From the NCBI GenBank assembly GCA_964476665.1, contig CAYZBO010000003.1, positions 887-64,886 of the forward strand: a stretch of 64,000 bases of DNA, read 5' to 3'. Source of the DNA: an uncultured Chryseobacterium sp. GTDB taxonomy: Bacteria > Bacteroidota > Bacteroidia > Flavobacteriales_F > PHOS-HE28. Under the pieces are notes generated by a model, which was given only the letters and a program-made list of their open reading frames with translations, was not told where the DNA came from and made no database searches. Of the stretch, positions 44,361 through 61,960 are shown in pieces (positions within the stretch are counted from its first letter, which is position 1; the number at the start of each line of letters is the position of its first letter). A program made the translations under genes and the position numbers.

Positions 44361-46346
44361 TTATTCCTTGGTGAAGCTGCGCTGGGTGGTGCCGTTGGGG
44401 GTGAACACCTGCAGGACGTAAGCGCCGGGTGTCAGTGCACGCACGTCAAGCCGCTCATTGAGCACGCTGCCCCGCAGCACCAGCCGACCTGTTGCATCAA
44501 GCACACGGACCGGCACCTGACCATTGCCCAGTCCGGAAATGGTGAGAACATCCTGCGCCGGCACCGGGAACAGGCGCAGCTGCGACTCGCTGGCGTCAGA
44601 GAGACCGGTGGATACACCTTCCACGATCACCTCCGTCGTGTTCACTGCGATGCCTTCCAGCACGTCCACGATGCCCGAGGGCCAGCGGACCGTTACGGCC
44701 GTGATCTCGGTCTCCTCGCCCAGACCGAAGTGGGCGGTCATGGTGCTCATGTATCGGAAGCCATCACCGCTGCGCACTTCGCGCGTGAACGTGCCGCTGG
44801 GCGTTTCAACCGTAATGCGCGCGCCGATGCCATTGCTGTTGCTCAACACCCCCACCGTGGCGATCTTCAGCCAGTTGTTGTCGTTGCCCGCGTTCCTGCG
44901 GATGGTGCCCGAGGTGTACACGTCGAGGAACCCATCGTTGTTCAGGTCGCCGATGGGGCCGTTGCCGGGGGAGGTGCCGTTGGGAACGAAGGTCATGTCA
45001 CCCATGTTCATCAGCAGGCCACCGCCACCAAGGATGTCGAGGTAACCGTTGTTGTCGAAGTCATGGGTGGTCCATTCGATGCTCTGACCGGTGAACAGGT
45101 CGATGCCTGAACCCGCCGTGATGTTCGTGAAGGTGCCGTCGCCATTGTTCTCAAGCAGCTTGTGGTAGCCGCTGCTGCTGGCGCCGATGAGCACGTCCAT
45201 ATCCCCATCGTTGTCAAAGTCGCCCCAGGCACTGCTCCAGCTCTGGTGATTGTCCGCCATGCCCAGTTCGGGAGCAACGTTGGTGAAGGTGCCATCCCCA
45301 TTGTTGCGCATCAACAGGTCCACCGGGTCGCAGCCACACTTGGCCACGAACAGGTCGATATCGCCGTCGTTGTCATGATCGGTCCAGATGGAACCATAGT
45401 TGCCACAGGTGAGACCGAGCAGTCCCTGGTTGAAGGTGAGGTTGCCGTTGCCGTCATTAAAGAAGGCGACATTGGCATCCACATCGTGGCATACGAAGGC
45501 GTCCAGGTTGCCATCATTGTTGATGTCCACCATGTTGGTCCGCTGGCTGAAGATGTAGTTCGGGAAGGACACCTCTGTGAAGCCCGTGCCCGTGTTGTTG
45601 GCCATCATGAAGGTGGAGCCGCTGCCACCGCCATAGAGCAGGTCGTTGTACCCATTGCCATCGATGTCGCCGGCAGCAATGCTCCAGGAAGCCGTGTGGT
45701 CAGCAGGGGTGGTGATGATGTTCACGGATTGGAACGTGCCGTTGGCCTGCTGGTACAGGATGTTCACATTGCTGGTGCTCGTGCCCACGATGTCGTCCAG
45801 CTGGTCATTGTTCATGTCCACCACGCAGTAACCGCTGCCGCTCACACCCTGGGTAACGTTGGTGAAGGAGATGATCGACGGCGGAGGGGGCGGAGGCGGG
45901 GGGGCAGGCTGAACGAACGCCAACTCGAAACTGAAGCCTGCGGTGGTCCAGCGGTTGTCAAAACCGATGGTGTAGGTCTGTCCGGCGGTCACCGGAAAGG
46001 TCACCAGCGAGGTCAGGTTCGATCCGCTGTCATCATCCCCGGCCAGGCAGCTGAGGCTGCCGCAGGTGCCCGTGTAAACGTGCACCCGGGTATCCACCCA
46101 ACTGGTGCCTGGAACATCCGTGTTGAGGCGCATCGTGGTGTCCACCGTCGCGGTGTAGGTGAACCATTCCGCCATGCTCCCCGGGTTGCCATTGGTGGCG
46201 CAGGTCACGGGCAGTGGCTCGGTACCATTCACCGCATCCACCACATGCACCCCGATGCCAACGTTCAGCGCCGTGGCGCACGTGTTCTGGCCGTAAGTAT
46301 GGTACGAGAGCGATAAGAGCGTGAAGGAGAGCAGGGTTGAACGCAT
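44361..46346 (-). CDS. FG-GAP/VCBS-repeat beta-propeller protein with ASPIC/UnbV domain and T9SS C-terminal sorting domain, cassette copy 1
   Basis: Signal peptide. N-terminal Cys-pair beta-sandwich-like domain followed by a poly-Pro linker. Multiple DxDxDGxxD / FG-GAP-like repeats (DINNDGNLD, DHDNDGDID, DFDNDGDMD...). UnbV_ASPIC signature ARITVETPSGTFTREVRSGDGFRYMSTMTAHFGLG. C-terminal T9SS CTD (...LRLFPVPAQD...YVLQVFTPNG...). Confidence 0.8.
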   Translation of the reverse strand: MRSTLLSFTLLSLSYHTYGQNTCATALNVGIGVHVVDAVNGTEPLPVTCATNGNPGSMAEWFTYTATVDTTMRLNTDVPGTSWVDTRVHVYTGTCGSLSCLAGDDDSGSNLTSLVTFPVTAGQTYTIGFDNRWTTAGFSFELAFVQPAPPPPPPPPSIISFTNVTQGVSGSGYCVVDMNNDQLDDIVGTSTSNVNILYQQANGTFQSVNIITTPADHTASWSIAAGDIDGNGYNDLLYGGGSGSTFMMANNTGTGFTEVSFPNYIFSQRTNMVDINNDGNLDAFVCHDVDANVAFFNDGNGNLTFNQGLLGLTCGNYGSIWTDHDNDGDIDLFVAKCGCDPVDLLMRNNGDGTFTNVAPELGMADNHQSWSSAWGDFDNDGDMDVLIGASSSGYHKLLENNGDGTFTNITAGSGIDLFTGQSIEWTTHDFDNNGYLDILGGGGLLMNMGDMTFVPNGTSPGNGPIGDLNNDGFLDVYTSGTIRRNAGNDNNWLKIATVGVLSNSNGIGARITVETPSGTFTREVRSGDGFRYMSTMTAHFGLGEETEITAVTVRWPSGIVDVLEGIAVNTTEVIVEGVSTGLSDASESQLRLFPVPAQDVLTISGLGNGQVPVRVLDATGRLVLRGSVLNERLDVRALTPGAYVLQVFTPNGTTQRSFTKE

Positions 46347-47561: not shown

Positions 47562-49553
47562 TTACTCCCTGGTGAAGGGCAGGCGCTGAACTCCGGTGGC
47601 ATCGTGCATCTCCAGCACATAGAAGCCGGGCTGCACCTGTGAAAGGTCCAGCCGGCCTCCTTGCAGTCGGGTGTTCATCACCAAACGGCCTGAGGCTCCG
47701 AAGACCCGCACCAGGGCGTTGCCGGTGTTCGTCCCCTGCACCATCAGCTCATTCCCAGCCGGCACGGGGAACAGCCGGAGTACGGCCATTTCCTGCTCTG
47801 CCACGTTGGTGCCCACCTCCTCCACGAGGGTGATCGTACCGTTCACGGCTACGTCGTTCAGCACGTTCACGATGCCGGAAGGCCAGCGTACATGCACCTG
47901 CTCCACCACCTCGTCCATGCCCAGGCCGAAGTGCGCCGTGATGGTGCTCATGTATCGGAAGCCGTCGCCACTGCGCACATCCCGGATCTGCTGGCCCGAT
48001 GCCGTGGTGATGGTGATCCGCGCTCCGATACCCTCGCTGTTGCTTACCGTACCCACCGTGCGGATGCGCAGCCAGTTGTTGTCGTTGCCATTGTTCATGC
48101 GTGCGGTGGAACTACTGATGACGTCAAGGAAGCCATCGTTGTTGAGGTCGCCCACGGCACCCACTTCGAAGCCGACAGGGTTCTCCTCGAAGATCATGTT
48201 CCCCATGTTCACCATGATGGTGCCGCCGCCGCCCATCACATCCAGCAAGCCGTCATTGTTGAAGTCGTGGGTGACATGCTCGACACTGGTGCCCGTGAAC
48301 ACATCCCAGCCCGATCCCGCCGTGATGTCCGTGAAGGTGGTGCCATCGTTCCGCATCAGCTTGTGGCCGCCGGCCGTAAAGGAGCTGGCACCCACCAGGG
48401 CGTCCATGTCACCGTCATTGTCAAAGTCGCCCCATGCGGCGCTCCAGGTCTGGACCGGATCGGCAAGGTTATACAGGGCCGCCACCTCCGTGTAAGTGCC
48501 GTCACCGTTGTTGCGGTGCAGCTGGTTGGTGCTCACCACCGGGTTCCCTCCGCGGCATTTGGCGATGAACAAGTCCACGTCACCATCGTTGTCGAAGTCC
48601 GTCCAGATGGAGCCATAGTTCCCACCTCCTTGCGTGTCACCCAGACCTCCCTGGTTCCAGCCGAACTGCCCGTTGCCATCGTTCAGCAGGTACACGTTCG
48701 GTGCCACATCGTGGCATACGAAGGCGTCCAGCCGACCATCGTTGTTGATGTCCACCATGTTGGTCCGCTGGCAGAAGACGTATTGTGCATAGCTGCTGTC
48801 GCGGAACGAAGTGCCGTCCTCATTGGCGAACATGACCGTCACACCGCTGCCCCCTCCATAGACGAGGTCCCGCTGGCCGTTCCCATCCAGGTCACCCGCG
48901 CACAGGCTCCAGCTCGGTGAGTTCGCCACGGTATCGTTCGGCAGGTTCACCGTATTGAACCCACCGCCGGGCAGTTGATAGTTGATGTTGATGTTGGAGG
49001 TCGTCACCGAGACCACATCGTCAAGGCCGTCGTTGTTCATGTCCACAGCGGCCCTGACGGTCCCTGCTGTGGCCAGTGATTGGTTGGTGAAGCTGATCAA
49101 TTCAAGGAACGGCGGCTCCTCCGTGACGGAGAACGTGAATCCGTTGGCATCCCAACGATCATCGAAGGCGATGTAATAGGTGGTGCCGCCGATCATGTTC
49201 ACGTGAAGCCAGCTCAGGTAGCCGCTTCCGGAATCATCGTCACCGCCAATGCAGGTGAGGGCGCCGCAGCTGCCGCTGTAGACGTGCACACGGGTATCCC
49301 GGCCCGTGTTCTCCACCAGGTCCGTGGTGATCACCAGGCTGATGTCGGTGGATGGCGTGTACGTGTACCACTCGCCATTGGAGGCGAGATTGCCTCCTGT
49401 TGCGCAGACCGGCAGGGGGATCTCGGTGCCGTCCACGGTGTCGACCACATGGATGCCGGCCGTGATGGCGAGGGCAGTGGCACAGTCGTTCTGCGCAAAG
49501 GCTGCGGAACCGAATAGGAACAAAGGGAGCAAAGCGGCGTACGTGTGTTTCAT
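47562..49553 (-). CDS. FG-GAP/VCBS-repeat beta-propeller protein with ASPIC/UnbV domain and T9SS C-terminal sorting domain, cassette copy 2
   Basis: Start MKHTYAALLPLFLFGSAAFAQ (ATG at 49553). Same architecture as 44361-46346 (ARITITTASGQQIRDVRSGDGFRYMSTITAHFGLG), with a T9SS CTD at the C-terminus. Confidence 0.8.
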   Translation of the reverse strand: MKHTYAALLPLFLFGSAAFAQNDCATALAITAGIHVVDTVDGTEIPLPVCATGGNLASNGEWYTYTPSTDISLVITTDLVENTGRDTRVHVYSGSCGALTCIGGDDDSGSGYLSWLHVNMIGGTTYYIAFDDRWDANGFTFSVTEEPPFLELISFTNQSLATAGTVRAAVDMNNDGLDDVVSVTTSNININYQLPGGGFNTVNLPNDTVANSPSWSLCAGDLDGNGQRDLVYGGGSGVTVMFANEDGTSFRDSSYAQYVFCQRTNMVDINNDGRLDAFVCHDVAPNVYLLNDGNGQFGWNQGGLGDTQGGGNYGSIWTDFDNDGDVDLFIAKCRGGNPVVSTNQLHRNNGDGTYTEVAALYNLADPVQTWSAAWGDFDNDGDMDALVGASSFTAGGHKLMRNDGTTFTDITAGSGWDVFTGTSVEHVTHDFNNDGLLDVMGGGGTIMVNMGNMIFEENPVGFEVGAVGDLNNDGFLDVISSSTARMNNGNDNNWLRIRTVGTVSNSEGIGARITITTASGQQIRDVRSGDGFRYMSTITAHFGLGMDEVVEQVHVRWPSGIVNVLNDVAVNGTITLVEEVGTNVAEQEMAVLRLFPVPAGNELMVQGTNTGNALVRVFGASGRLVMNTRLQGGRLDLSQVQPGFYVLEMHDATGVQRLPFTRE

Positions 49554-49702
49554 CTTGCTGGTCCAGGTCAGGGTGGTGAATGGTCGGGTGGCAGGTCTTG
49601 CAGGTCCCTGCTCCATAGCGAAGTTAGCGGGAACGCGGCGCTTGTGTGCAAGGCGGGCGCTCGTCGACGCAACCCTGCTGCTCATCGGGGGGCTTGCGTC
49701 CG

Positions 49703-50401
49703 TCAGCGATCGACAACGAGCTTGAACCCCACCCCATGGACGTTCACGATCTGCACGTTGGGGTCCGGCTTCAGGTACTTCCGCAGGCGACTGATGAACA
49801 CATCCAGGCTGCGACCCAGGAAGTACGTGTCATCACCCCAGACCATGTTCAACACAAGTTCCCGCGGCAGCACCTGCTCGCGGTGCAGGCACAGCAGGCG
49901 CAGCACGTCAGCCTCCTTGCGGGTGAGCTTGCGCTCTTCGGTGGGGTGGCTGAGCACCAGGTTGCGATGGTCGAAGGTGAACTCCCCCAGGTCGAAGCGT
50001 TCACGCCCCTTCTCGGGTTCGCGGCTATGTGTGCGGCGCAGGATCGCTTCGATCCGCAGGATCAACTCCTCGTGACTGAACGGTTTTGTGAGGTAATCGT
50101 CACCACCTGCCTTGAAGCCCGCGATTCGATCGTCCACCTGGCTTTTTGCTGTGAGGAACACGATCGGCACCGCACGGTCCACAAGACGGATGTCCTCGGC
50201 GAGGCTGAATCCATCCTTTAGCGGAAGCATCACGTCCAGCACACATAGGTCGTGTGTCATTTCGTTGAACCTTCGCAGCCCTTCCTTGCCATCCCTGCAC
50301 AGGGTCACCTGGTATCCCTTGCGCTTGAGGGCGTCCTGAACGACGAAGCCGAGGTTCTGGTCGTCCTCCACGAGCAGGATGCGTACGGGGTCGGTGTTCA
50401 T
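49703..50401 (-). CDS. two-component response regulator, OmpR/PhoB family (winged-helix DNA-binding)
   Basis: Receiver domain with phospho-accepting Asp (ILLVEDD...LCVLDVMLP) and a C-terminal winged helix. The start overlaps the HK stop (ATGA at 50398-50401). Confidence 0.9.
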   Translation of the reverse strand: MNTDPVRILLVEDDQNLGFVVQDALKRKGYQVTLCRDGKEGLRRFNEMTHDLCVLDVMLPLKDGFSLAEDIRLVDRAVPIVFLTAKSQVDDRIAGFKAGGDDYLTKPFSHEELILRIEAILRRTHSREPEKGRERFDLGEFTFDHRNLVLSHPTEERKLTRKEADVLRLLCLHREQVLPRELVLNMVWGDDTYFLGRSLDVFISRLRKYLKPDPNVQIVNVHGVGFKLVVDR

Positions 50402-51738
50402 GATCGGTACTTGTTCTTGCCCTGGGGTAGACAAAGTGTGAAGGTGCTGCCCCTGCCAGGCTCGCTGCGGACCTCCACCCGGCCGCCATGGGCCGAAGTG
50501 ATCTGTTGCACGTAATGAAGTCCAAGGCCGAAGCCCTTTACATCGTGTCGGTTGCCGGTATGCACCCGATAGAAGCGTTCAAAGATGTGCTTCAGGTCCT
50601 CCTTGTCGATGCCGATGCCCTTGTCGCTCACGGCCACATGAAGTCCACCCTCGGTGTTGAAGGTCCGGATGGTGATGGTGCCTCCCTCCGGCCCGTACTT
50701 CAGCGCGTTGTCCACCAGGTTCGTCAATGCATTGGTCAGGTGCACGCGATCGCCGACAACGATCTCATTGGTGGCATCCAGCTGCAATGCCAGTGAGCTG
50801 TTGCGCTCACGAAGTGGAAGGAGGAAGTGGTCGCGCACCTCCTGCACGACGGCATGCATCTGCACCGGTTCCCGGGCCAGTTCCAGTTCGCCTTTGTCCA
50901 GCGTGGATAATTGGAGGACGCGCTCAACCTGGACACGCAAGCGCTCGTTCTCCGTACGGATGATGTGTGCGTAAGCCTGCAGCCGGTCGGGCTCATGCAC
51001 GATGTCCGGGTCACTGATGACCTCGCTGCTCAACGCGATCGTGCTGATCGGGGTCTTCAGCTCATGGGTCATGTTGCCGATGAAGTCGTTCTTCATTTCG
51101 CTCAGCTTCTTCTGCTGCAGAATGACCCACACACTGTAGGCGAAGAAGCTGAATACGATGAGCGTGACCACGGCGGGGAAGACCCATGTCCAACTGCTCG
51201 CGGCAGGTTCCTCCCATAGGCTGCTTTGCCGTTTGGGGAAATAGACCCCGAAATAGTGCCCGTCCTTGTCGAGCTTCTGCAATTTGGTGTGTGGAACGGT
51301 GTCCGTCCCCGCTGTGTCCAGGCTTACATAATTCCCGTAGACCACGCTGTCCGTGAAACAATCGTAGATGCCGTACTCAAAGTCCTCCAGGATGTTGCGG
51401 CGACTGAACTCCTTGCGCAGCAGGGCTTCCAACAGATAAGGGTGCAGCGTGTCGTTGATCGTGACAGCAAAGTAGTTCGGCCGCTCCTGTTTCACCGCGT
51501 CGTAGAGATCGCTCGGGTCCTTGGTGATGGAGAGGATCTGTTCTGTCACGTCCGTGAGCGCGATCACCACCCGGTCGTTGAACTGCTTCTCCAGCTGCCG
51601 GGCCTGTTCGCGGTTCAGTTCCAGTTGGTCCTTGTGCGTGCGACGAGCCTGCTGCAGCCATAGCAGCTGCGTGATGACAACGCCGAATACGCTCAACGTG
51701 GCCAGCAGCAGCAGGGTTCCGATCGCCTTACGTCCCAT
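50398..51738 (-). CDS. two-component sensor histidine kinase
   Basis: N-terminal TMs, H-box HELKTPISTIALSSE and HATPase_c (GFGLGLHYVQQI). Confidence 0.9.
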   Translation of the reverse strand: MGRKAIGTLLLLATLSVFGVVITQLLWLQQARRTHKDQLELNREQARQLEKQFNDRVVIALTDVTEQILSITKDPSDLYDAVKQERPNYFAVTINDTLHPYLLEALLRKEFSRRNILEDFEYGIYDCFTDSVVYGNYVSLDTAGTDTVPHTKLQKLDKDGHYFGVYFPKRQSSLWEEPAASSWTWVFPAVVTLIVFSFFAYSVWVILQQKKLSEMKNDFIGNMTHELKTPISTIALSSEVISDPDIVHEPDRLQAYAHIIRTENERLRVQVERVLQLSTLDKGELELAREPVQMHAVVQEVRDHFLLPLRERNSSLALQLDATNEIVVGDRVHLTNALTNLVDNALKYGPEGGTITIRTFNTEGGLHVAVSDKGIGIDKEDLKHIFERFYRVHTGNRHDVKGFGLGLHYVQQITSAHGGRVEVRSEPGRGSTFTLCLPQGKNKYRS

Positions 51739-51865
51739 GATCCGTCCGCTCCTTTAGCGGATGGACAATGTTACAGCGTGGCAGCATATGCGACATGGCC
51801 TCTTAACAAGCCTTATCGTTCGAGGGACGCGGTCCTTCCCTCCGCACCGCCGATCTTGCGGCCCC

Positions 51866-53464
51866 ATGGAACGAACGCCGTTCACCCTTCCCCGGATCCC
51901 GGTGCACCTGTGGCTGGTGTGGCTGGCGGTGATCGTGGCCGGGTCGCTCCTGGATGTGATGGAAGTGGATGCGGCCCAGTACGCCACCATGGCCCGCGAT
52001 ATGCTCTTCCAGGAAGACCCGCTGAAGCTGTATTTCCGCGGCGCTGATTACCTGGACAAGCCACCGCTGCTGTTCTGGACCTCGGCCCTTTCCTATTGGA
52101 TCTTCGGGGTCCAGAACTGGAGCTACAAGCTGCCCAGTATCCTTGCGGCATTGGTGGCCGTTCATGCCACCTATCGCTATGCCCGCCTCCATCATGGCGC
52201 CGCCGCTGGGAGCTGGGCCGCATTCATCTTCGCCACATCGGTCTCCTTTGTGCTCATGACCAACGATGTGCGGACGGATACGCTCCTCACCGCAGCCATC
52301 ATCGTGGCCGTCTGGACAGGCAGTGAGTTCCTCGCCAATGGGCGCACCGGCTGGCTCCTGGCCGCTTCCGCATCGGTGGCCTTTGGGATGTTGGCCAAGG
52401 GCCCCATGGGTGCCGTTGCTCCCTGCACCGTCCTGGGCATCCAAGTATTGCTCGACCGCCGTTGGAGCGTCTTCCGTGATTCCCGCCTTCTCCTGGTGCC
52501 GTTGGTGATCGGCCTCCTGCTCACGCCCATGCTGATCGGGCTCTACGAACAGCATGGCATGCATGGCATCCGCTTCTTTTTCTGGGAACAGAGTTTTGGA
52601 CGTATCACGGGAGAGAACCGCTGGAAGGATGATTCATCCGTCCTGTACTTCACGCATGAACTGCCCTGGCTGATGTTGCCCTGGACCCTGGTCGTCATCC
52701 ATGGCTGGTGGAACGGTGTCCGAAAAGCCCTGCGCATGCATGGCCCGGAGGAGCGTGGTGGGCCCTTGGGCGCGCTCCTCCTGTTCGCAGCGCTGTCCTT
52801 ATCCCAGTTCAAACTGCCCCATTACATCTATCCCATCCTGCCTCTTGTGGCAGTACAGGGTGGCCGCGCATTGAGCGAGGGGCTTCCAGTTGCCTTGGTC
52901 AAGGCTCAGCGTTATGTCTGGTCGGCCCTGGCCCTGTTCGCCGCGGCCATCCTGCTTTGGGCGTTCCCGGATGGCAGGCTGTGGACGCTGCTCCTGTTCT
53001 GTGGCCTTCTCGTGGTGCTCAAGTTGCGCGGTGCCAAGGGCGACCGGACGGGCCTGTTGTTGGGCGCTGCGCTGTGGCTGTCCATTGCCTGGGGCATCAA
53101 CACCCAGTTCTATCCGGTATTGCTCCGCTACCAATCGAATGCGCAGGTGGGCAGGTGGATGGTTGCGCACCGTATCTCCCCCGATCGGTTGATCAGTGTG
53201 GGCGTGGGGGGCACCTCGCTCGAATTCTATGCGGGTGGCAAGGGCCCCTACGTGGCCGAGGTCGCTGAGCTGGCGACCGGCCCCGCGCCGGGTCAGTATG
53301 CATTGGTGGAGGCCGAGCAACTGGCGGCCATGGTCCAGCGCTTTCCGCCAAGGGACACCGTGCTCGTACTGGAGGACCTGCCCGTGCAGATGCTGAGCGT
53401 GGAGATGGTCCTGCCGGGAAGCCGCTCCCATGCTGCGGATAAGCGCTATCTGCTGGCCTATTGA
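51866..53464 (+). CDS. glycosyltransferase family 39 protein (ArnT/PMT-like undecaprenyl-phosphate-linked sugar transferase)
   Basis: Polytopic membrane protein with an N-terminal ...DAAQYATMARDM...YLDKPPLLFW... motif region typical of GT39/ArnT. Start MERTPF at 51866. Confidence 0.7.
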   Translation: MERTPFTLPRIPVHLWLVWLAVIVAGSLLDVMEVDAAQYATMARDMLFQEDPLKLYFRGADYLDKPPLLFWTSALSYWIFGVQNWSYKLPSILAALVAVHATYRYARLHHGAAAGSWAAFIFATSVSFVLMTNDVRTDTLLTAAIIVAVWTGSEFLANGRTGWLLAASASVAFGMLAKGPMGAVAPCTVLGIQVLLDRRWSVFRDSRLLLVPLVIGLLLTPMLIGLYEQHGMHGIRFFFWEQSFGRITGENRWKDDSSVLYFTHELPWLMLPWTLVVIHGWWNGVRKALRMHGPEERGGPLGALLLFAALSLSQFKLPHYIYPILPLVAVQGGRALSEGLPVALVKAQRYVWSALALFAAAILLWAFPDGRLWTLLLFCGLLVVLKLRGAKGDRTGLLLGAALWLSIAWGINTQFYPVLLRYQSNAQVGRWMVAHRISPDRLISVGVGGTSLEFYAGGKGPYVAEVAELATGPAPGQYALVEAEQLAAMVQRFPPRDTVLVLEDLPVQMLSVEMVLPGSRSHAADKRYLLAY

Positions 53465-53567
53465 TCCTGGTCCTTTTCCTGCGCCGAACCTTTTTCAACA
53501 GGTCGGTGTTATCTTCATCGTTGTGGAATTCCCTGTTCCACACTTACCAGAACCAACCCTAACGAGC

Positions 53568-56500
53568 ATGGAACACATTTTATCCCACGCAGCGCGCAAT
53601 GCGCTCCTATCGGCAGCCACAGCGGTGGGCCTGCTGGTGTCGGCCTTGGTGCCATCATCCCGGGCGGTGGCGCAGCAGGGTGAATGCCTCGCACAAGCAG
53701 GAACCCTTTCCGGCTTCAAGCCCACTGATTGCCTCCAGGAGGGTGGCACGCAGATCGGTGGTGTGCCCAACGGCGACCACTTCACCCCTCCGGGTTTCAT
53801 CCGCAACTGGGTGCTCACCAAAGGTCCTGAACTGGTCATCGTCGATGCTGGCTATTCCAACATCTTCACGGTGACCGAGACAGGGCTCTACACGATCCAC
53901 ACGCTGATCTTCGACCCAAGCACGTTGGACCTCGGCATCATTCAGCCGGGTATTACCACGGGCTTCGATGTGAACAGCTTGTTGATCCAGGGAGGTGGCA
54001 GCATCTGCGCCAGCCTCGATGTCACCGGCACCTCTGTCTTGGTGGACAACCCGGATGCAGGTTCTCTGACCGCCATGTCAGCGAGCCTTTGCCTCACGGA
54101 AGGAGAGGCGACCCTCTCGGCCATGCCGAACGGCAATGCCTACGTACCGGCTGGTTACAGTGTGGCCTATGTGCTCACTCAGGGGCCTGGCCTGGTGATC
54201 GTGAACGCGGGTGGTGAGCCATCCTTCACCGTTTCCGAGCCGGGCGATTATACCATCCATACGCTGGTGTATGACCCCGCCACCCTCGACCTCGGGGTCG
54301 TGGAACTGGGGGTGACCACCGGCTTTGATGTGAACGGCCTGCTCATTCAAGGTGGTGGCGGTATCTGCGCGGCACTCGATGTGCCGGGTGCGCAGTTCGA
54401 AGTGGCTGCCGATTGCCCCTGTGTCGCTGACGCTGGAACGCTTGCTGGATTCAAGCCCACGGACTGCCTGCAGGAGGGCGGAACGATGATCGGAGGTGTG
54501 CCCAATGGCGATGCCGTGGTTCCCGCCGGGTACTCCACCCTGTACGTGCTCACCCAAGGGCCTGGACTGGTGATCGTGGATGCCGGCCCATCGCCCATCT
54601 TCACGGTGAACAGCATCGGTTCCTACACCGTGCACACCCTGGTCTACGATCCCGCCACGCTCGACCTGAGCATCGTGGAGTTCGGTGTGACCACCGGCTT
54701 CGATGTGAACAGCCTGCTCATCCAGGGGGGCGGCAGTATTTGTGCAAGCCTTGACGTGACCGGCACCACCATCCTGGTGGACAACCCGGATGCTGGCAGC
54801 CTCTCTGCCGTCCTTGCTGAAGTGTGCTTGAACGATGGTGGTGCCACCGTGGCCGCCACTGTGAGCAGTGCACCTTATGTGCCCGCTGGTTACCAGGTGG
54901 CCTACGTGCTCACCCAGGGCCCCGGTCTGGTGATCGTGAACGCTGGTGCGGAACCCTCCTTCGTGGTGGAAGCCAGCGGTGATTACACTGTCCATACGTT
55001 GGTGTACGACCCGGCCACCCTCGATCTGGGCATCGTGCAGCCTGGTATCACCACCGGGTTCGACGTCAATTCACTGCTTATCCAAGGCGGTGGTGAGATC
55101 TGTGCTGCGCTCGATGTGGTCGGTGCTCCGGTGTCGGTGATCGTATGCGATGAGCCCTGCACTGCCAACGCGGGTACCCTCACCGCTGACATGTACGAGC
55201 TGTGCCTTCAGGATGGTGGTGCCACTGTCTCGGCCACGGCCAATGGTGACGCCCTGGTCCCTGACGGTTACAGTGTGCTGTATGTGCTGACCCAGGGCTC
55301 CGACCTCGTCATCGTTGATGCGGCCGCTGACCCTGCATTCACGGTGAGCGCCGCTGGCATCTACACGGTCCATACGCTGGTCTATGATCCCGCCACCCTC
55401 GACCTCGGTATCGTGGAGTTCGGTGTGACCACCGGTGTTGACGTGAACGGCCTGCTCATTCAGGGAGGAGGTTCCATTTGTGCGAGCCTCGATGTGGCAG
55501 GAGCGCAGGTGGTGGTGTTGGACTGCGAACCTGTCTGCGCCGCGAACGCAGGAACCCTGACCGCTGCAACCACCGACATCTGCCTTGTCGATGGACAGGC
55601 AACGCTGACCGCTTCCCCTAACGGCGATGCGTTCGTGCCGGCCGGGTTCATGACCATCCATGTGCTGACCCAGGGTCCCGAACTGGTGATCATCAATGCC
55701 GGTGCAACGCCCTCATTCACGGTAGATGAGCCCGGCTCCTACACCATCCACACACTCGTCTTCGATCCCGCCACTGTCGACCTGGGCATCGTTCAACTCG
55801 GTGTGACCACCGGTTTCGATGTGAACGCACTGCTCATCCAGGGTGGAGGTACCATCTGCGCAAGCCTGGATGTGCCCGGTGCGGCCTTCCAGGTGAATGC
55901 CTGCGGCGACGTGTGTGACGCACAAGCGGGTACGCTCAGTGCAACGGCTGGCCAGGTGTGCCTGACAGCGACCGGTGCATCCATTTCTGCCACGGCCAAT
56001 GGCGATGCCAGCGTGCCGGCCGGTTACCAGCAGGTCTATGTCCTCACGGAAGGCCCAGGGCTCGTGATCGTCAATGCCGGGCCAGCGCCTGCCTTTGATG
56101 TGATCGCAGAGGGAACCTACACCATCCACTCCCTGGTCTATGACCCTGCAACCCTTGATCTTGGTATCGTGGAATTCGGCACCACCACCGGCTTTGATGT
56201 GAATGGACTGCTGATCCAAGGCGGAGGTTCCATTTGTGCCAGCCTTGATGTGGCCGGCGCTACGGTGAGCGTCATCGCATGCGGTAATGCCTGTGTGGCG
56301 GATGCCGGTACCCTGACCCCCTTTGAGCAGGCCGTGTGCCTGACCGATGCCGGAGCCACCTTCGGTGCCGAGCCCAACGGCGACGCCCTCGTGCCGCCAG
56401 GATATGAAGTGGTGTACGTGCTCACCAGCGGTGATGGTCTTGTCATCGAACAGGTGAACGCCAGCCCTGTCTTCACCGTGGCCAATACCGGCAACTACAC

Positions 56501-57290
56501 CATCCACACGTTGGTGTACGACCCGGCCACGCTCGACCTGAGCATCGTGGAGTTCGGCACCACCTCGGGTGTCGATGTGAACGGTCTGCTCATCCAAGGC
56601 GGTGGAACCATCTGTGCCAGCCTTGACGTGGCCGGTGCACCCACGCAGGTGGTGGACTGCAACACCATCTGCAACGTGAACGCCGGTACGCTCAGCGCCG
56701 ATGCAGCTGAAGTGTGCCTGGTCAACGGTTCCGCCGCCATCGGTGCGAGCCCGAACAACGATGCCTTCAAGCCCGCCGGCTTCGAGACCATCTTCGTGCT
56801 CACTCAAGGTCCGGGTCTGGTGATCGTGAACGCGAGCGTGACACCCGATTTCGTGGTGGACGCCCCGGGTCTCTACACCATCCACACCCTCGCGTTCAAC
56901 CCCAGCACCATCGATCTCAGCCTCGTGGAATTCGGTGTGACAACCGGCTTCGATGTGAACGCGCTCCTGGTCCAGGGTGGCGGTACCATTTGCGGTAGCC
57001 TTGATGTGGCCGGTGCACCGGTCCTGGTGAGCGACTGCAACGCTCTTGTCGCATGGCCGAACCCCGCCACCGCCGATCTGACCCTTGAGCTGGAAGGCAT
57101 GGGTTCCGGTCGTCTGGAGGTGGATATCCTCGACATGCAGGGTGCGCGCACCACGTTGAGCACTTCCATCGCCGCCGACCAGCCGATGCACCGCATCGAT
57201 GTGTCCGATCTGCGGCCTGGCCAGTATATCCTGCGAGTGACCTCCAGCAGCGGCGTACGTACCGTGCGCTTCTCGAAGGTCGATCGCTGA
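53568..57290 (+). CDS. large T9SS-sorted surface protein made of ~10 tandem ~122-aa Cys-containing repeat modules
   Basis: Signal peptide MEHILSHAARNALLSAATAVGLLVSALVPSSRAVAQ. Repeats have the pattern C.A.AGTL...CL..G.AT..A.PNGDA.VPAGY..YVLTQGPGLVIV.AG..P.FTV...G.YTIHTLVYDPATLDLGIVEFGVTTGFDVN.LLIQGGG.ICASLDV.GA. C-terminal T9SS CTD (...LEVDILDMQG...YILRVTSSSGVRTVRFSKVDR). Confidence 0.8.
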   Translation: MEHILSHAARNALLSAATAVGLLVSALVPSSRAVAQQGECLAQAGTLSGFKPTDCLQEGGTQIGGVPNGDHFTPPGFIRNWVLTKGPELVIVDAGYSNIFTVTETGLYTIHTLIFDPSTLDLGIIQPGITTGFDVNSLLIQGGGSICASLDVTGTSVLVDNPDAGSLTAMSASLCLTEGEATLSAMPNGNAYVPAGYSVAYVLTQGPGLVIVNAGGEPSFTVSEPGDYTIHTLVYDPATLDLGVVELGVTTGFDVNGLLIQGGGGICAALDVPGAQFEVAADCPCVADAGTLAGFKPTDCLQEGGTMIGGVPNGDAVVPAGYSTLYVLTQGPGLVIVDAGPSPIFTVNSIGSYTVHTLVYDPATLDLSIVEFGVTTGFDVNSLLIQGGGSICASLDVTGTTILVDNPDAGSLSAVLAEVCLNDGGATVAATVSSAPYVPAGYQVAYVLTQGPGLVIVNAGAEPSFVVEASGDYTVHTLVYDPATLDLGIVQPGITTGFDVNSLLIQGGGEICAALDVVGAPVSVIVCDEPCTANAGTLTADMYELCLQDGGATVSATANGDALVPDGYSVLYVLTQGSDLVIVDAAADPAFTVSAAGIYTVHTLVYDPATLDLGIVEFGVTTGVDVNGLLIQGGGSICASLDVAGAQVVVLDCEPVCAANAGTLTAATTDICLVDGQATLTASPNGDAFVPAGFMTIHVLTQGPELVIINAGATPSFTVDEPGSYTIHTLVFDPATVDLGIVQLGVTTGFDVNALLIQGGGTICASLDVPGAAFQVNACGDVCDAQAGTLSATAGQVCLTATGASISATANGDASVPAGYQQVYVLTEGPGLVIVNAGPAPAFDVIAEGTYTIHSLVYDPATLDLGIVEFGTTTGFDVNGLLIQGGGSICASLDVAGATVSVIACGNACVADAGTLTPFEQAVCLTDAGATFGAEPNGDALVPPGYEVVYVLTSGDGLVIEQVNASPVFTVANTGNYTIHTLVYDPATLDLSIVEFGTTSGVDVNGLLIQGGGTICASLDVAGAPTQVVDCNTICNVNAGTLSADAAEVCLVNGSAAIGASPNNDAFKPAGFETIFVLTQGPGLVIVNASVTPDFVVDAPGLYTIHTLAFNPSTIDLSLVEFGVTTGFDVNALLVQGGGTICGSLDVAGAPVLVSDCNALVAWPNPATADLTLELEGMGSGRLEVDILDMQGARTTLSTSIAADQPMHRIDVSDLRPGQYILRVTSSSGVRTVRFSKVDR
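53690..57050 (+). repeat. intragenic tandem repeat array, period ~361-379 bp, ~10 copies
   Basis: The conserved codon block for (P/A)NGDA recurs at ~53766, 54127, 54502, 55240, 55618, 55995, 56377 and 56752. One degenerate unit at ~54870 lacks the motif. Units are highly similar at both DNA and protein level. Confidence 0.8.
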
Positions 57291-57461
57291 CCGCGTCCGG
57301 TGAAGGTGGGGCCTGGGGATCAGGGTGCATGGCACCCTGTGACCCGGGCCCCACTGATCTTGTGACAGTGATGTGACCGTTCAGAGGTCTTTCACATGAT
57401 CAAGGTATTGGTCTGCGGTGTTCCTCCCATGTTGCTTTGCAGCACCTTGTTCAGAACCCAC

Positions 57462-58706
57462 ATGAGAACGCTCGCTACGCTCGCTTTCCTCCTCCCCGGC
57501 GCATCCCTCCTCGCTCAGACAGAGGTCACCATTGCCACCGGTCCCGCCAACGCCCAACAGGTGTGGTACAGCCTTCAGAACGGTATCCAGGCCACCGCGG
57601 ACCTTGACGCCTGGGACCTCGCGTTCGAGATCAACTCCTTTACGTCCTCCATCCTGGTGAACACAGCAAAGGGCCTGTCCGTCTACGAGACACCGGTGGC
57701 CATCGCCGACTGGGCTTCCCTCACCACCCCCAACGAGGGTGCATGGACGGCCGTGCACAACTCCGAGCTGAGCTGGTTCGAGGGTGCCCTCACCCACGGG
57801 AACAACCTCGACCAACCCGATGGCTTCAACCTCGGTTGGGGTGCCTACAGCTTCATCACCCACACTGTAGCAGGGACCAAGGTGTACGTGATCGCGGATG
57901 GCGAAGGGAACTACCGCAAGTTGCGCATCAACAGCTTGGCATCCAATACGTACAACTTCACCTACGCCGACCTGGATGGTTCCAATGAGGTCACCGCCAC
58001 CCTCAACAAGAGCAATTTCGTCGGAAAGAATTTCGGCTACTTCAGCTTCGCCACCAACAGCACCGCGGACCTTGAGCCCGCAGCTAATGGCTGGGACCTG
58101 CTTTTCACCAAGTATACCTCCATCATTCCGGCTCCTGAACCAACGGCCTACAGTGTGGCCGGCGTCCTTCAGAACAAACAGGTGGATGCCGTGCAGGTGG
58201 ATGGCATTCCGGTGGCCGCCGCACAATGGGAAGGCCAGCAGCTCGATAGTGCGATGAACATCATCGGCTACGACTGGAAGACCTTCAACATGACCACCTT
58301 CTCCTATGAATACGCAGAGGACCGCACCTACTTCGTAAGTGACCGCGCCGGCAACGTGTGGAAGCTCGTCTTCATCGGCTACGGCGGATCGGCCACCGGC
58401 ACCATGACCTTCACGCAGGAACTGGTGAGCGCCACTTCCGTGGACGAGGTCAACACCGGAGCCCTGGCCGTGTTCCCGGTGCCCGTTACCAATGGCATCC
58501 TCAACATCCGCGCGGACCAGCTGTTCCGCGGTGCCCGTGTGGAGGTGCTCGATGCCAGCGGTCGCTCCCTGCTTACGACCAGCGTGACGGACCTTGAAGC
58601 AGGCGCGACCGCCGCTGTGGATCTGACCGGTATGCCAGCCGGCTTGTACCTGGTGCGTCTTCAGGCCGCCGGCACGCTCCGCACCGCTCGTGTGGTGGTG
58701 GAGTGA
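57462..58706 (+). CDS. putative HmuY-like (heme-binding family) protein fused to a T9SS C-terminal sorting domain
   Basis: Signal peptide MRTLATLAFLLPGASLLAQ and a WDLAFE motif. Paralogous to the 60995-61960 protein. The C-terminus ...LAVFPVPVTNGILNIRAD...GLYLVRLQAAGTLRTARVVVE is a T9SS type-A CTD. The family call is tentative. Confidence 0.5.
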   Translation: MRTLATLAFLLPGASLLAQTEVTIATGPANAQQVWYSLQNGIQATADLDAWDLAFEINSFTSSILVNTAKGLSVYETPVAIADWASLTTPNEGAWTAVHNSELSWFEGALTHGNNLDQPDGFNLGWGAYSFITHTVAGTKVYVIADGEGNYRKLRINSLASNTYNFTYADLDGSNEVTATLNKSNFVGKNFGYFSFATNSTADLEPAANGWDLLFTKYTSIIPAPEPTAYSVAGVLQNKQVDAVQVDGIPVAAAQWEGQQLDSAMNIIGYDWKTFNMTTFSYEYAEDRTYFVSDRAGNVWKLVFIGYGGSATGTMTFTQELVSATSVDEVNTGALAVFPVPVTNGILNIRADQLFRGARVEVLDASGRSLLTTSVTDLEAGATAAVDLTGMPAGLYLVRLQAAGTLRTARVVVE

Positions 58707-58727
58707 AGCGGCATCCGCTGAACGAGC

Positions 58728-60998
58728 ATGGACCTGGTATACAGTGTCAACAGGGTGGGGGCGGTCCTTCTTGGACTGGCCCTTCCCTGCCTGCTGTCCG
58801 CGCAGATCACGCTCGAGGTGCGCAACGCGAACGATGACCCGGTATCCTATGCCCACGTCCTCTGGCAGGTGCTCGATGGTTCCTCGCTGGGCGGCATGGA
58901 AGTGCTGGATGCAACGGGTCGAGGACGCATTGATCCACCGGTCACCGCTCAGCGCATTGCGTTGCGCCTCTCCTTCGTGGGCTATCGCACCATCACCGAT
59001 ACGGTTGCTGCCGGAGCGGCCGTACTGCGCTACATCCTGGTGCCCGATGCGCAGGCGCTTCCCGAGTTCGTGGTCACCGGCCAGTATGCGCCGGCCTCAC
59101 CGGACAAGGCCGTGCACCGCGTGCGTGTGCTCGACGCAACCACCATCCAGCGCATGGCCGCCAACAACCTCGGCGATGTGCTGCGCAATGAACTGAACAT
59201 CCGTCTCTCGCAGGATAACATGCTCGGCACCTCCCTGTCCATGCAGGGGCTCGGCGGTCAGAACGTGAAGATCCTTGTCGACGGTGTGCCGGTCATCGGC
59301 CGGCAGGATGGCAACATCGACCTGGCCCAGATCGACCTCACCGGTATCGAGCGGGTCGAGGTGGTGGAGGGGCCGCTCAGCGTGAACTATGGCACCAACG
59401 CGCTCGCAGGCACGATCAACCTCATCACGCGCAAGCGGGGTGGTGCACCGGCCACGCTCAAGGCATCTGCATACGCCGAGCATATAGGCAGGCTCAACAC
59501 CACCGTGTCCGCCTCACGACAATGGGGGCGCAACGACATCGTGTTGACCGCTGGGCGCAACTTCTTTGCAGGCTGGGATCCCCGCCATACTGGAATGGTC
59601 GACCTGTCGCCTGCGCTGGCGGATACGAACCGATTCCAACAGTGGAAGCCCCGTGAACAGTACTTCGGTCGCTTCAGTTATCGCCATGCCACGGATCGCT
59701 GGGACCTGGGCTACAAGGCGGAAGCCATGCACGATGTCATCCTGAACCGGGGGCTCCCACGGGCACCTTACTTCGAGACCGCGTTCGACGAGCAGTACAC
59801 GACCCTGCGGCTCGACAATGCGGTCACGGCCGAGCATCGCATGGCAGCCGGCCGGAAGCTCAATGCCCTGGTGGCCCACAATCGCTACCTCCGCCACAGC
59901 AACCGCTGGTTCCGTGACCTCACCACCCTCAGTGAACAGCTCGTGGGTGGCGATGCCGAGCAGGATACTTCCGGCTTCACGCTCACCAACGTCCGGGCCA
60001 ACTTCATCCAGGCGCGGGACAGTGCGCGTGTCAACTACGAAGTGGGGGTCGACCTCAACCTCGAGACAGGGTCGGGGCCACGGATCGGTGATGGGCGCGA
60101 GGACATTGGTGACTACGCCGTGCTCGCCAGTGCGGAGTACCGCGTGGATGAGCGCCTCACCCTGCGGCCGGGTTTGCGCTATGCCTTCAACACGCGCTAC
60201 GGTGCGCCCCTGGTTCCCTCCTTCAACATGCGGTGGCAGCTGACCAAAGGCTTCACCCTCCGCGCTTCCTACGCCAAAGGCTTCAGGGCACCCTCCCTCA
60301 AAGAGCTCTATCTCTTCTTCGTGGACGTGAACCACGACATCCAAGGCAACACCGAGCTGGCAGCCGAGCGTTCGCATCACTGGTCCACCGCGCTGAACTA
60401 TCGCCACGCCAAGGACAAGGGTGTCTACACCAGTGAGATCTCCCTGTTCCACAACCGGATGTCGGACCTGATCACGCTCGTACAGGTCTCGGCCACCCGC
60501 TTCACCTATGCCAACATCGCCTCCTTCCAGACCACCGGGGGTAGCATTGGGGCTGGCTGGGATAACGGCCATTGGGTGGTCTCCACCGGTGTGGCGGTAA
60601 CGGGTCGATACGATGCCATCGCCATGGAGGCGGATCGGCCGTACCTCTTCACCACGGAAGTGCGAGCATCACTTACCAAGCAGTGGCTCCGTAAGGGCTG
60701 GAGCGGGTCCATCTTCTGGAAGTGGCAGGACCGTCAGGTGAACTATGTGCAGCAGGAGGACGGCAGTGTGGATCAGACCTTCATCGGTGCGTTCCACATG
60801 GCCGATGCCACGCTGACCAAACGCGTGTGGAACGGAAGGCTCGCGGTATCTGCTGGTGCGAAGAACCTCTTCAACGTGATGAACATCGCCGCCACCATGA
60901 ACGGTGGAGCACACAGTGGGGGCGCAACGAGCGTCCCAATGGCCACGGGACGTGTGGCGTTCGCACGGCTGGAATTGGACCTGAAGCGATCGAAATGA
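58728..60998 (+). CDS. TonB-dependent receptor with N-terminal carboxypeptidase-regulatory-like domain
   Basis: Plug domain with a TonB box-like region (EFVVTG), ...NLGDVLRNELNIR... and a C-terminal barrel ending in an aromatic residue. 756 aa. Confidence 0.85.
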   Translation: MDLVYSVNRVGAVLLGLALPCLLSAQITLEVRNANDDPVSYAHVLWQVLDGSSLGGMEVLDATGRGRIDPPVTAQRIALRLSFVGYRTITDTVAAGAAVLRYILVPDAQALPEFVVTGQYAPASPDKAVHRVRVLDATTIQRMAANNLGDVLRNELNIRLSQDNMLGTSLSMQGLGGQNVKILVDGVPVIGRQDGNIDLAQIDLTGIERVEVVEGPLSVNYGTNALAGTINLITRKRGGAPATLKASAYAEHIGRLNTTVSASRQWGRNDIVLTAGRNFFAGWDPRHTGMVDLSPALADTNRFQQWKPREQYFGRFSYRHATDRWDLGYKAEAMHDVILNRGLPRAPYFETAFDEQYTTLRLDNAVTAEHRMAAGRKLNALVAHNRYLRHSNRWFRDLTTLSEQLVGGDAEQDTSGFTLTNVRANFIQARDSARVNYEVGVDLNLETGSGPRIGDGREDIGDYAVLASAEYRVDERLTLRPGLRYAFNTRYGAPLVPSFNMRWQLTKGFTLRASYAKGFRAPSLKELYLFFVDVNHDIQGNTELAAERSHHWSTALNYRHAKDKGVYTSEISLFHNRMSDLITLVQVSATRFTYANIASFQTTGGSIGAGWDNGHWVVSTGVAVTGRYDAIAMEADRPYLFTTEVRASLTKQWLRKGWSGSIFWKWQDRQVNYVQQEDGSVDQTFIGAFHMADATLTKRVWNGRLAVSAGAKNLFNVMNIAATMNGGAHSGGATSVPMATGRVAFARLELDLKRSK

Positions 60999-61960
60999 GG
61001 AACGGTATCATCGTGGGCTCCCTGGCGGCACTTCTGCTCACCGCCTGCATGAAGGAGGAACTGCCTGTTCCGGTCGCCCCCCGTGGCGAGGCAAGGAAGC
61101 TACAGCAGTGCATGGGGCCTGGCTATCAGGACCAGCTCTGGATCGATCTGGGCAGCGCGACCGTGGTGAACACCAACCACAAGGAAGCCTGGGACCTTGC
61201 GTTCGAAAGCGCACCTGACGGCTGGCGCATCTGGCTGAACGGTGCCAAACTCATGACAGCGTGGGACCGCGGTGCCGTGGATATCGCCCTGCCGCACGAC
61301 ACCGTGGGCATGGCGGCAGGCCGCCGCATCGACGCTCCCAGCGGGCACCGCGACAGCACTGCATTCGGCGATTGGCGTGGTCGTGATGCCGTGTTCGTGG
61401 TGGACATGGGGTTCAATACGCTTGGACAATCCCTTGGTTACCGCAAGTTCCGTTTCCGTGAGGTGAACGCTTCATCCTACACCTTCGACGTTGCGCTGAT
61501 GGACGGCTCCCAGCTGCAGACGGTCACGCTCCCCAAGGACCCCTCGCGGCACCACACATGCTACAAGCTCGGCACAGGCGTTCAGGCCATTGAGCCGCAG
61601 CGCAATGCATGGGACATGGTCCTCACCCAGTACACGCACCAGTTCTACGAGCCGTTCATGCCCTACCTGGTGGTCGGCATGTTGTCGGCACCGGGGGTTC
61701 GCATCGCTCAAGTGAGCGGAGGCGAGTTCGCTGCTGTGCAGCTCAACGATACATTGCAGCATCCCTTCATTTCGAACCGTGATGCCATCGGTTACGACTG
61801 GAAATACTACTCCTTCGATCAGGCATCCTATACGGTCGATCAGGGTGCTGTCTACATTGTTCAGGATGCCGAGGGCTACTACTACAAGGTCAACTTCCTT
61901 GACTTCTATGGTGGACAGGGGCAGGTGGGCTGCCCATTGATGCAGGTGGCCCCCTTGTAG
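60995..61960 (+). CDS. putative HmuY-like lipoprotein
   Basis: Start MRNGIIVGSLAALLLTAC (lipobox) with an ATGA overlap onto the receptor stop. Carries WDLAFES and IGYDWKYYSF motifs shared with the 57462 protein. Confidence 0.5.
   Translation: MRNGIIVGSLAALLLTACMKEELPVPVAPRGEARKLQQCMGPGYQDQLWIDLGSATVVNTNHKEAWDLAFESAPDGWRIWLNGAKLMTAWDRGAVDIALPHDTVGMAAGRRIDAPSGHRDSTAFGDWRGRDAVFVVDMGFNTLGQSLGYRKFRFREVNASSYTFDVALMDGSQLQTVTLPKDPSRHHTCYKLGTGVQAIEPQRNAWDMVLTQYTHQFYEPFMPYLVVGMLSAPGVRIAQVSGGEFAAVQLNDTLQHPFISNRDAIGYDWKYYSFDQASYTVDQGAVYIVQDAEGYYYKVNFLDFYGGQGQVGCPLMQVAPL

Follow-up and report, generated by a model that had tools for sequence, protein, structure and literature searches.

Surface proteins that consist of tandem immunoglobulin (Ig)-like domains and are exported by a type IX secretion system (T9SS) are common, so that a further one is, as far as the class of protein is concerned, ordinary. 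In the systems that have been studied, the PorU sortase removes the sorting domain of the cargo, which is then either anchored to the outer membrane or released; in Flavobacteria, cargo with a type A sorting domain can be released rather than anchored. Here we describe a protein of this kind, 1240 amino acids (aa) long and hereinafter called the repeat protein, which is encoded in a 64,000-nucleotide (nt) stretch of contig CAYZBO010000003.1 from an uncultured Chryseobacterium sp. (the window), together with the module from which it is built.

Among the described systems, SprB, the gliding adhesin of Flavobacterium johnsoniae, is likewise a large, repetitive T9SS surface cargo of Bacteroidota; however, SprB has a type B sorting domain, repeats of the PF13573 family and a dedicated partner, SprF, for none of which a counterpart is recorded at the locus of the repeat protein. 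PKD arrays are, as is predicted for the repeat protein, Ig-like beta-sandwiches in tandem in extracellular proteins, and the strand motif PG.YT..L.V.D of the module resembles the F-strand of PKD; but the module is about 123 aa long, compared with about 80-90 aa for PKD, carries an insertion of about 30 residues and conserved cysteines, and lacks a motif of the WDFGDG type. The extenders of giant repeats-in-toxin (RTX) adhesins, such as the BIg repeats of Marinomonas MpIBP, and cadherin ectodomains are runs of beta-sandwiches joined by short linkers into a rod that keeps something at a distance from the cell, with an acidic composition like that of the repeat protein, and E-cadherin EC1-5 is among the fold matches of a three-module model described below. 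Unlike the repeat protein, they leave the cell by type I secretion or are eukaryotic, and near-identity among their repeats is frequent. Their stiffness comes from Ca2+ in the linkers; no sequence similarity between them and the module was found. Finally, the grappling-hook protein GhpA (PDB 9g8b) of Aureispira, a genus of Bacteroidota, is the second-best fold match of the three-module model (E-value 4.5e-6), and its solved fragment, like the model, is a string of beta-sandwich domains. GhpA is, however, a far larger protein with no sequence-level match to the module and, given a template modeling (TM) score of 0.25 and 12% identity, the likeness is generic to tandem sandwiches.

Taking all the evidence together, we consider it somewhat better than an even bet that the repeat protein, exported by the T9SS, is an extremely acidic rod made up of nine Ig-like modules of ancient origin and is probably an adhesin or spacer fiber. 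Under this scheme, the protein would cross the inner membrane by means of a Sec signal peptide and pass through the T9SS by virtue of a type A C-terminal sorting domain; the mature protein, with its nine tandem modules of about 123 aa, would form a fairly stiff, strongly acidic rod extending a few tens of nm from the cell and would work as an adhesin or as a spacer fiber. Elsewhere in the family, the same array is joined to domains that are characteristic of adhesins and enzymes among T9SS cargo. The array itself arose from ancient duplications, probably including that of one two-module block, and is kept by purifying selection.

Gene, export signals and modules

The repeat protein is encoded by a single open reading frame (ORF) on the plus strand, read from the ATG at 53568. 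The gene is real; its product is 100% identical to P0001, from a gene called on the metagenomic ENA contig ERZ28593885 scaffold_20, and 99.9% identical to P0254 from an NCBI metagenome contig, so that the frame read in the preliminary description of the locus coincides with genes called on two public metagenome contigs. An in-frame ATG farther upstream, at 53430, was set aside as the start because the gene would then overlap the PMT_2 gene, which ends at 53464. Two long ORFs lie inside the repeat gene on the minus strand (54078-54995, 305 aa, and 55713-57335, 540 aa); most likely, these are by-products of the 62% GC content and the periodic codon structure, and not genes.

By inspection, the N-terminus has the features of a Sec signal peptide: the n-region is basic, a hydrophobic stretch of 18 residues is present, and cleavage at the AVA-Q motif would fall between AVA and QQ; homologues have leaders of comparable length. 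At the C-terminus, a type A sorting domain exceeds the curated cut-offs of both TIGR04183 (32.5 bits against 23) and PF18962 (33.2 bits against 27), which identifies the protein as T9SS cargo, as had been proposed. Two further proteins in the window contain a Por_Secre_tail domain, the product of the gene at 44361-46346 and the HmuY-like protein encoded immediately downstream of the repeat gene, and lend what may be indirect support to the presence of the T9SS machinery in the host. We are highly confident of the architecture and of the export route as described.

An affinity with the SprB class, that is, with adhesins moved by the gliding motor, had been suggested as well. Beyond the general likeness as large repetitive T9SS cargo in Bacteroidota, one member of the module family, P0210, also contains SprB repeats; but the sorting domain of the repeat protein is of type A, with no type B domain reported, no SprB repeat (PF13573) is detected in the protein at an E-value <= 1, no PorP/SprF-family domain is recorded for any neighboring gene and, at 1240 aa, the protein is far shorter than SprB. 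A role in gliding of the SprB type is accordingly disfavored, and we regard it as highly improbable.

Between the export signals, the protein consists of modules only, with no head domain. There are nine occurrences of the motif L[LV][IV]QGGG, which lie 120, 125, 120 and then five times 126 residues apart, and an independent repeat search found a 300-nt core in nine copies whose starts are 360, 375, 360 and then five times 378 nt apart; hence, there are nine modules in tandem, of 120-126 aa each, rather than the ten or so counted in the preliminary description. The periodicity that it reported stands, and both the core motif that it quoted, YTIHTLVYDPATLDLGIVEFGVTTGFDVN.LLIQGGG.ICASLDV, and the PNGDA.VPAGY-like motif are found in the protein.

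The modules are, however, far from the near-identity that was first ascribed to them. Pairwise aa identity among the nine averages 61% (53-72%), codon-aligned DNA identity averages 63% (54-71%), and the longest exact DNA word common to any two units is 9-32 nt; Tandem Repeats Finder reported nothing in the interval 52000-59000 because the units are too diverged, and the unit boundaries were set from the protein motifs and the repeat search instead. Identity between units at codon positions 1, 2 and 3 is 70%, 76% and 44%, respectively, where 33% would be expected at position 3 by chance given the composition, and the same codon is used at 49% of the identical residues. With position 3 at 44%, synonymous sites are close to saturation. 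The modules were duplicated long ago, and purifying selection acts on their protein sequence. Modules 1 and 3 (73% aa identity, and 81% DNA identity over 88 nt, repeat family D2) and modules 2 and 4 (72% aa identity) are mutual best matches, which suggests that a block of two modules was duplicated long ago.

The mature array (aa 36-1157, 1122 residues, about 112 kDa) has an isoelectric point (pI) of 4.05, with 110 Asp and Glu against 5 Lys and Arg, and contains 32 Cys. Given how few Lys and Arg residues there are, the protein would be nearly immune to trypsin-like proteases, and it would be hard to see in standard tryptic proteomics. The Bacteroidota O-glycosylation motif D(S/T)(A/I/L/V/M/T) was not found in the mature protein, which lends no support to a link to the upstream PMT_2 glycosyltransferase.

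Module fold, conserved insertion and cysteines

In agreement with the preliminary description, the module could not be assigned to any domain family with a name, as there is no Pfam, NCBIfam or PDB sequence match for it. With the whole protein as the query, only the sorting domain scored above threshold in Pfam and NCBIfam, and a single unit had no Pfam match even at an E-value <= 10; below threshold, the protein, the unit and the homologues yielded noise (PKD, DUF4321, DUF7490, CppA_C, GO-like_E_set and PA14), and for GbpA_D3 there is only a faint precomputed match. For PKD (PF00801), the score summed over the whole protein is 36.4 bits, with no significant single stretch and no unit that reaches the threshold as an individual domain, and alignment of the module profile to single PKD, Ig_7 and HYR sequences with hhalign gave probabilities of 0.2-1.2% (0.2% for PKD). 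PDB sequence searches with both profiles returned only noise at E-values >= 0.018, from a DARPin, ParM and adenosine deaminase; the DARPin match reflects a chance likeness of LDLGIVE.G..TGFDVN to the ankyrin consensus and was discarded. A literature search on tandem Ig-like proteins of the T9SS found no account of the module family.

The AlphaFold2 model of module 6, obtained with an alignment of 71 units, has a predicted local distance difference test (pLDDT) score of 94.9 and a predicted TM (pTM) score of 0.88. In this model, the module is a beta-sandwich of about nine strands with a short helical segment. When the predicted secondary structure is read against the sequence, no stretch is more conserved than this segment (DPATVDLGIVQLGVTTGFDVNALLIQGGGTIC), an insertion of some 30 residues that follows the long YTIHTLVF strand and precedes the two strands at the C-terminus. 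Its consensus, DPxTLDL..G.TTG.DVN.LL.QGGG.IC, is family-specific and strongly conserved, and in each module a nearly invariant His and several Asp lie in or next to it. A Foldseek search of the PDB with the single module gave no match at an E-value <= 0.001; the best matches, all of them weak, were the PKD domain 2e7m (E-value 4.8e-3, TM scores 0.35/0.40) followed by fibronectin type III (Fn3) and Ig V-type domains. An Ig-like fold is, in our assessment, very likely, and going by the model the module belongs to an uncurated family whose Ig-like sandwich loosely resembles PKD. The preliminary description had named a match to an Ig-like, PKD or cadherin family together with a fixed copy number as the finding that would tell against it: the weakly PKD-like Ig sandwich represents the first half of that pair, but the copy number is not fixed. 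A NEAT-like heme-binding domain was considered as well, for its size, its sandwich-plus-helix fold and the HmuY neighbors of the repeat gene, and was dropped because the fold matches include no NEAT domain and a YxxxY motif is absent.

A model of three consecutive modules (aa 37-405) has a pLDDT of 90.6 and a pTM of 0.62 and contains no low-confidence linker. Its Foldseek matches include the phage T5 pb4 fiber, GhpA of Aureispira, E-cadherin EC1-5, and the Fn3 tandems of the insulin receptor and titin, all with low TM scores (0.2-0.33). The model supports an extended, fairly stiff rod; because the linkers between modules are short and, by prediction, ordered, a fairly stiff, strongly acidic rod is the most likely shape and, judging from the typical size of an Ig domain, it would be 35-40 nm long.

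Four conserved Cys had been ascribed to each module. Two of these, at module positions 19 and 111, are indeed common to all nine units; the remaining two flank the junctions as C-x(1-3)-C, and both are missing at the junctions of units 1 and 2 and of units 3 and 4, where the pair is replaced by the Cys-free linker TGTS(V/I)LVDNPDAGSL. Across 120 homologues, 426 junctions contain two Cys, 191 contain none and 49 contain one, and over 1546 junctions in 253 proteins the co-occurrence of the junction pair amounts to phi = 0.70, compared with at most 0.27 for pairs within a unit. Such coupling fits a disulfide or a shared role of the junction Cys, and disulfide pairing in the array is a putative feature, in which C19 would bond with C111 of the same module and, across a junction, C126 with C4 of the following one.

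The module family and the history of the array

A word-indexed search identified at least 632 homologous proteins at an E-value <= 1e-5, and a profile of 71 diverse units retrieved 939 clusters at an E-value <= 1e-3 among 1.84 billion representatives; the module is present in 3-24 copies per protein among the 150 best-scoring matches listed. The members with named hosts come from Flavobacteriales metagenome-assembled genomes (MAGs), Sanyastnella, Saprospiraceae/Haliscomenobacter and Chitinophagales, and from the marine Flavobacteriaceae Olleya, Seonamhaeicola, Lacinutrix, Hyunsoonleella, Psychroserpens and Algibacter. A T9SS sorting domain is present in 17 of the 20 members that were scanned against Pfam/NCBIfam or have a Pfam record. 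Over 253 members, the array has a median lead of 44 aa and a median tail of 91 aa, and this arrangement of signal, contiguous array and sorting domain, the commonest in the family, is also that of the repeat protein. In a search of genome contigs with the whole protein, the sole match lay in a Lentimicrobiaceae MAG and was an unrelated one to a sorting domain, and the orthologues discussed below were found via the contigs that encode the homologous proteins.

It is the module that is new: despite some 940 clusters, neither Pfam nor NCBIfam has a model for it and no relative of it has been solved, and its fold is predicted with high confidence. Defining the domain would improve the annotation of hundreds of proteins that are labeled only "T9SS type A sorting domain-containing". 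No long-standing question is opened thereby, and the novelty is modest, that of a domain variant in a well-known kind of surface protein. The automatic JGI names of some members ("plastocyanin", "MraZ", "YlzI") are clearly wrong, which indicates that the family has no proper model. One member, P0326 (1709 aa), shares 99% identity with Saprospiraceae-type sequences and was deposited as part of a "Cyanothece sp. SIO1E1" MAG; given that the T9SS is not a cyanobacterial system, this placement is probably due to bin contamination.

In low-copy members, the array is combined with partner domains, namely GEVED, SdrD_B, SpaA, SprB, FG-GAP, Kelch, HYR, DUF11, Ig_7, NHL, GBD_T9SS_assoc and 5'-nucleotidase_C. 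Por_Secre_tail is found in 9 of 13 such proteins, and in 8 of 12 the array forms one contiguous block within the multi-domain protein; in several, P0218 and P0219 among them, it comes directly ahead of the sorting domain, and in these two it is located between the sorting domain and the other domains. This placement looks like the behavior of an extender. For the repeat protein, we infer surface anchoring, the shape of a rod and a role in adhesion or spacing; as to the last, a function as an adhesin or spacer is a plausible but tentative assignment.

Alternatively, the array could be a passive coat or a released decoy, an acidic, protease-resistant sheath or shed protein directed against phage, grazers or fouling, or a means of conditioning surfaces, with no specific target to bind. 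The extreme composition of the protein, its make-up of modules without a head domain and the release that type A cargo can undergo in Flavobacteria are all compatible with such a role; but the insertion shows much tighter conservation than a bulk coat would call for, and the contiguous blocks in 8 of the 12 partner-domain proteins and the extender-like placement in P0218 and P0219 count against it as well. We consider a coat or decoy unlikely.

The reading of the repeat protein as a surface-borne adhesin or spacer rod also has several observations against it. Because type A cargo can be released in Flavobacteria, the surface location is uncertain; the pTM of the three-module model permits some flexibility between the modules; the strongest conservation is in the insertion and not in the core of the sandwich, which hints at a specific binding or metal site, beyond what a pure spacer would require; and none of the named host organisms is a model organism.

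The number of modules differs among relatives. At the syntenic loci, it is 9 in the window, 10 in P0007, 9 in P0020, which contains extra domains, and 7 in P0043, and the orthologues from Olleya and Seonamhaeicola, which occupy a different conserved locus of their own, have 8 versus 10 modules. The variation in copy number that the preliminary description anticipated is thus seen between lineages, but the two sequences of the cluster to which the repeat protein belongs are both 1240 aa long and 99.9% identical. The array differs from that of P0007 by one unit, and eight of its nine units are colinear with units of P0007, with best matches (window unit to P0007 unit) of 1-1 at 87%, 2-2 at 75%, 3-3 at 84%, 4-4 at 73%, 5-5 at 72%, 6-7 at 72%, 8-9 at 71% and 9-10 at 81%; for unit 7, no counterpart is clear. 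Within the protein, the best match of a unit is 66-73% identical, compared with 71-87% for the positional counterpart in P0007, so that the excess of paralogous over orthologous similarity that marks concerted evolution is not seen between these two proteins; the array is therefore older than the species split and has not been homogenized. It is a clean example of an old, non-homogenized repeat whose copy number drifts between lineages.

The array had initially been thought prone to expansion and contraction by recombination, and a contingency locus, at which frequent homologous recombination would generate antigenic or length variation among strains, is the corresponding functional proposal. 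Elsewhere in the family, there are signs of such dynamics, namely a 246-aa polymorphism between P0046 and P0261 and recently expanded units in P0080-type proteins (82-89% identity). In the repeat gene, however, DNA identity between units is 54-71% with exact matches of at most 32 nt, synonymous sites approach saturation, the units remain positional orthologues of those in P0007, with positional orthologues closer than paralogues, and the two known sequences of the cluster are equal in length and nearly identical. A contingency locus is, accordingly, very improbable, and the copy number of the repeat gene changes slowly between lineages and not by frequent recombination.

The polymorphism just mentioned belongs to another Flavobacteriales species cluster: P0046 (1128 aa) and P0261 (882 aa) are 99.6% identical apart from a clean two-module difference, units 1-2 of P0046 are 99-100% identical to its units 3-4, and the short form, P0261, occurs on several separate contigs, so that this is either a very recent block duplication or an assembly collapse. 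P0019 and P0333 differ in length by 369 aa, and P0323 contains expanded units at 82-89% identity.

Genomic neighborhood

At four Flavobacteriales loci, the genes follow the same order: a response regulator and a histidine kinase on the minus strand, PMT_2, the repeat protein, an HmuY-like T9SS protein, a TonB-dependent receptor and HmuY (Table 1). The trio of response regulator, histidine kinase and PMT_2, which lies directly upstream of the repeat gene at 4 of 4 syntenic loci, resembles a PmrAB/ArnT-style envelope-modification unit. The downstream cluster (57396-61960) looks like an uptake locus of the heme or corrinoid type; the best similarities of its TonB-dependent receptor are to heme/hemoglobin/transferrin and B12 receptors, all of them below threshold.

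Table 1. Features of the repeat gene and its surroundings (positions in the window)
Feature	Position	Strand	Remarks
OmpR-type response regulator and histidine kinase, then divergent ArnT-like PMT_2 (51866-53464)	49703-53464	response regulator and histidine kinase minus	
Coding sequence of the 1240-aa repeat protein	53568..57290	+	from the ORF list; stop codon included
Sec signal peptide, aa 1-35 (MEHILSHAARNALLSAATAVGLLVSALVPSSRAVA, followed by QQ)	53568..53672	+	by inspection of the sequence
Module 1, aa 37-156	53676..54035	+	module type A, GFKPTDCLQEGG motif, without C-terminal junction Cys
Module 2, aa 157-281	54036..54410	+	module type B, entered via the Cys-free linker TGTSVLVDNPDAGSL
Module 3, aa 282-401	54411..54770	+	module type A, old duplicate of module 1
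Module 4, aa 402-527	54771..55148	+	module type B, old duplicate of module 2
Module 5, aa 528-653	55149..55526	+	126 aa, two-Cys junctions (C-x3-C) on both sides
Module 6, aa 654-779	55527..55904	+	unit used for the AlphaFold2 model
Module 7, aa 780-905	55905..56282	+	
Module 8, aa 906-1031	56283..56660	+	
Module 9, aa 1032-1157	56661..57038	+	81% identity with the last P0007 module
T9SS type A C-terminal sorting domain, aa 1163-1237	57054..57278	+	TIGR04183, PF18962
GC-rich hairpin	57305..57355 (extended stem 57295-57366)	+	stems of 13 bp and 8 bp, 15 nt past the stop codon
HmuY-like protein, which has a T9SS type A sorting domain of its own	57396-58706	+	
TonB-dependent receptor	58728-60998	+	
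Second HmuY-family protein	60995-61960	+	

The repeat gene is separated from the HmuY-like gene by a GC-rich hairpin; the RNA of 57288-57395 folds at -59.8 kcal/mol (z = -5.0), and 0 of 200 shuffled sequences fold as well. The hairpin has no T-run and for this reason was not listed by a scan for consensus terminators; it is likely to be a terminator or an mRNA-stabilizing element that parts the two genes, and may represent a terminator of the Bacteroidota type or, alternatively, a repeated palindromic element.

The conserved gene order invites the notion that the repeat protein is a nutrient-capture fiber, in which the insertion would bind heme, a corrinoid, a metal or a polymer that would be passed on to the HmuY-like protein, the TonB-dependent receptor and HmuY downstream. 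The recurrence of this order at four loci, the sub-threshold similarities of the receptor, and the near-invariant His and several Asp at the insertion of each module are in line with such a function. The four loci are, however, close relatives (64-71% identity), so that the shared order may reflect ancestry only, and at one of them the order is interrupted by a 1879-aa gene. In five more distant genomes, those of Olleya, Seonamhaeicola and Sanyastnella and the MAGs of a Saprospiraceae and a Bacteroidia member, the repeat gene has other neighbors and the adjacency to uptake genes is not present. Furthermore, the fold matches contain no heme-binding (NEAT, HmuY) or carbohydrate-binding fold. As the adjacency is limited to close relatives and a very stable hairpin stands between the genes, a functional link to the uptake genes carries little weight, and nutrient capture appears quite unlikely. 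We give a similarly low probability to the related possibility that the module represents an undescribed extracellular domain family whose insertion and invariant His form a ligand or metal site repeated nine times, making the array a multivalent capture fiber, not an inert Ig-like spacer, that in this lineage would possibly feed the adjacent HmuY-like/TonB system.

The window also encodes two paralogous FG-GAP/UnbV_ASPIC proteins (44361-46346 and 47562-49685, minus strand), one of which has a T9SS sorting domain, so that the region is rich in T9SS cargo.

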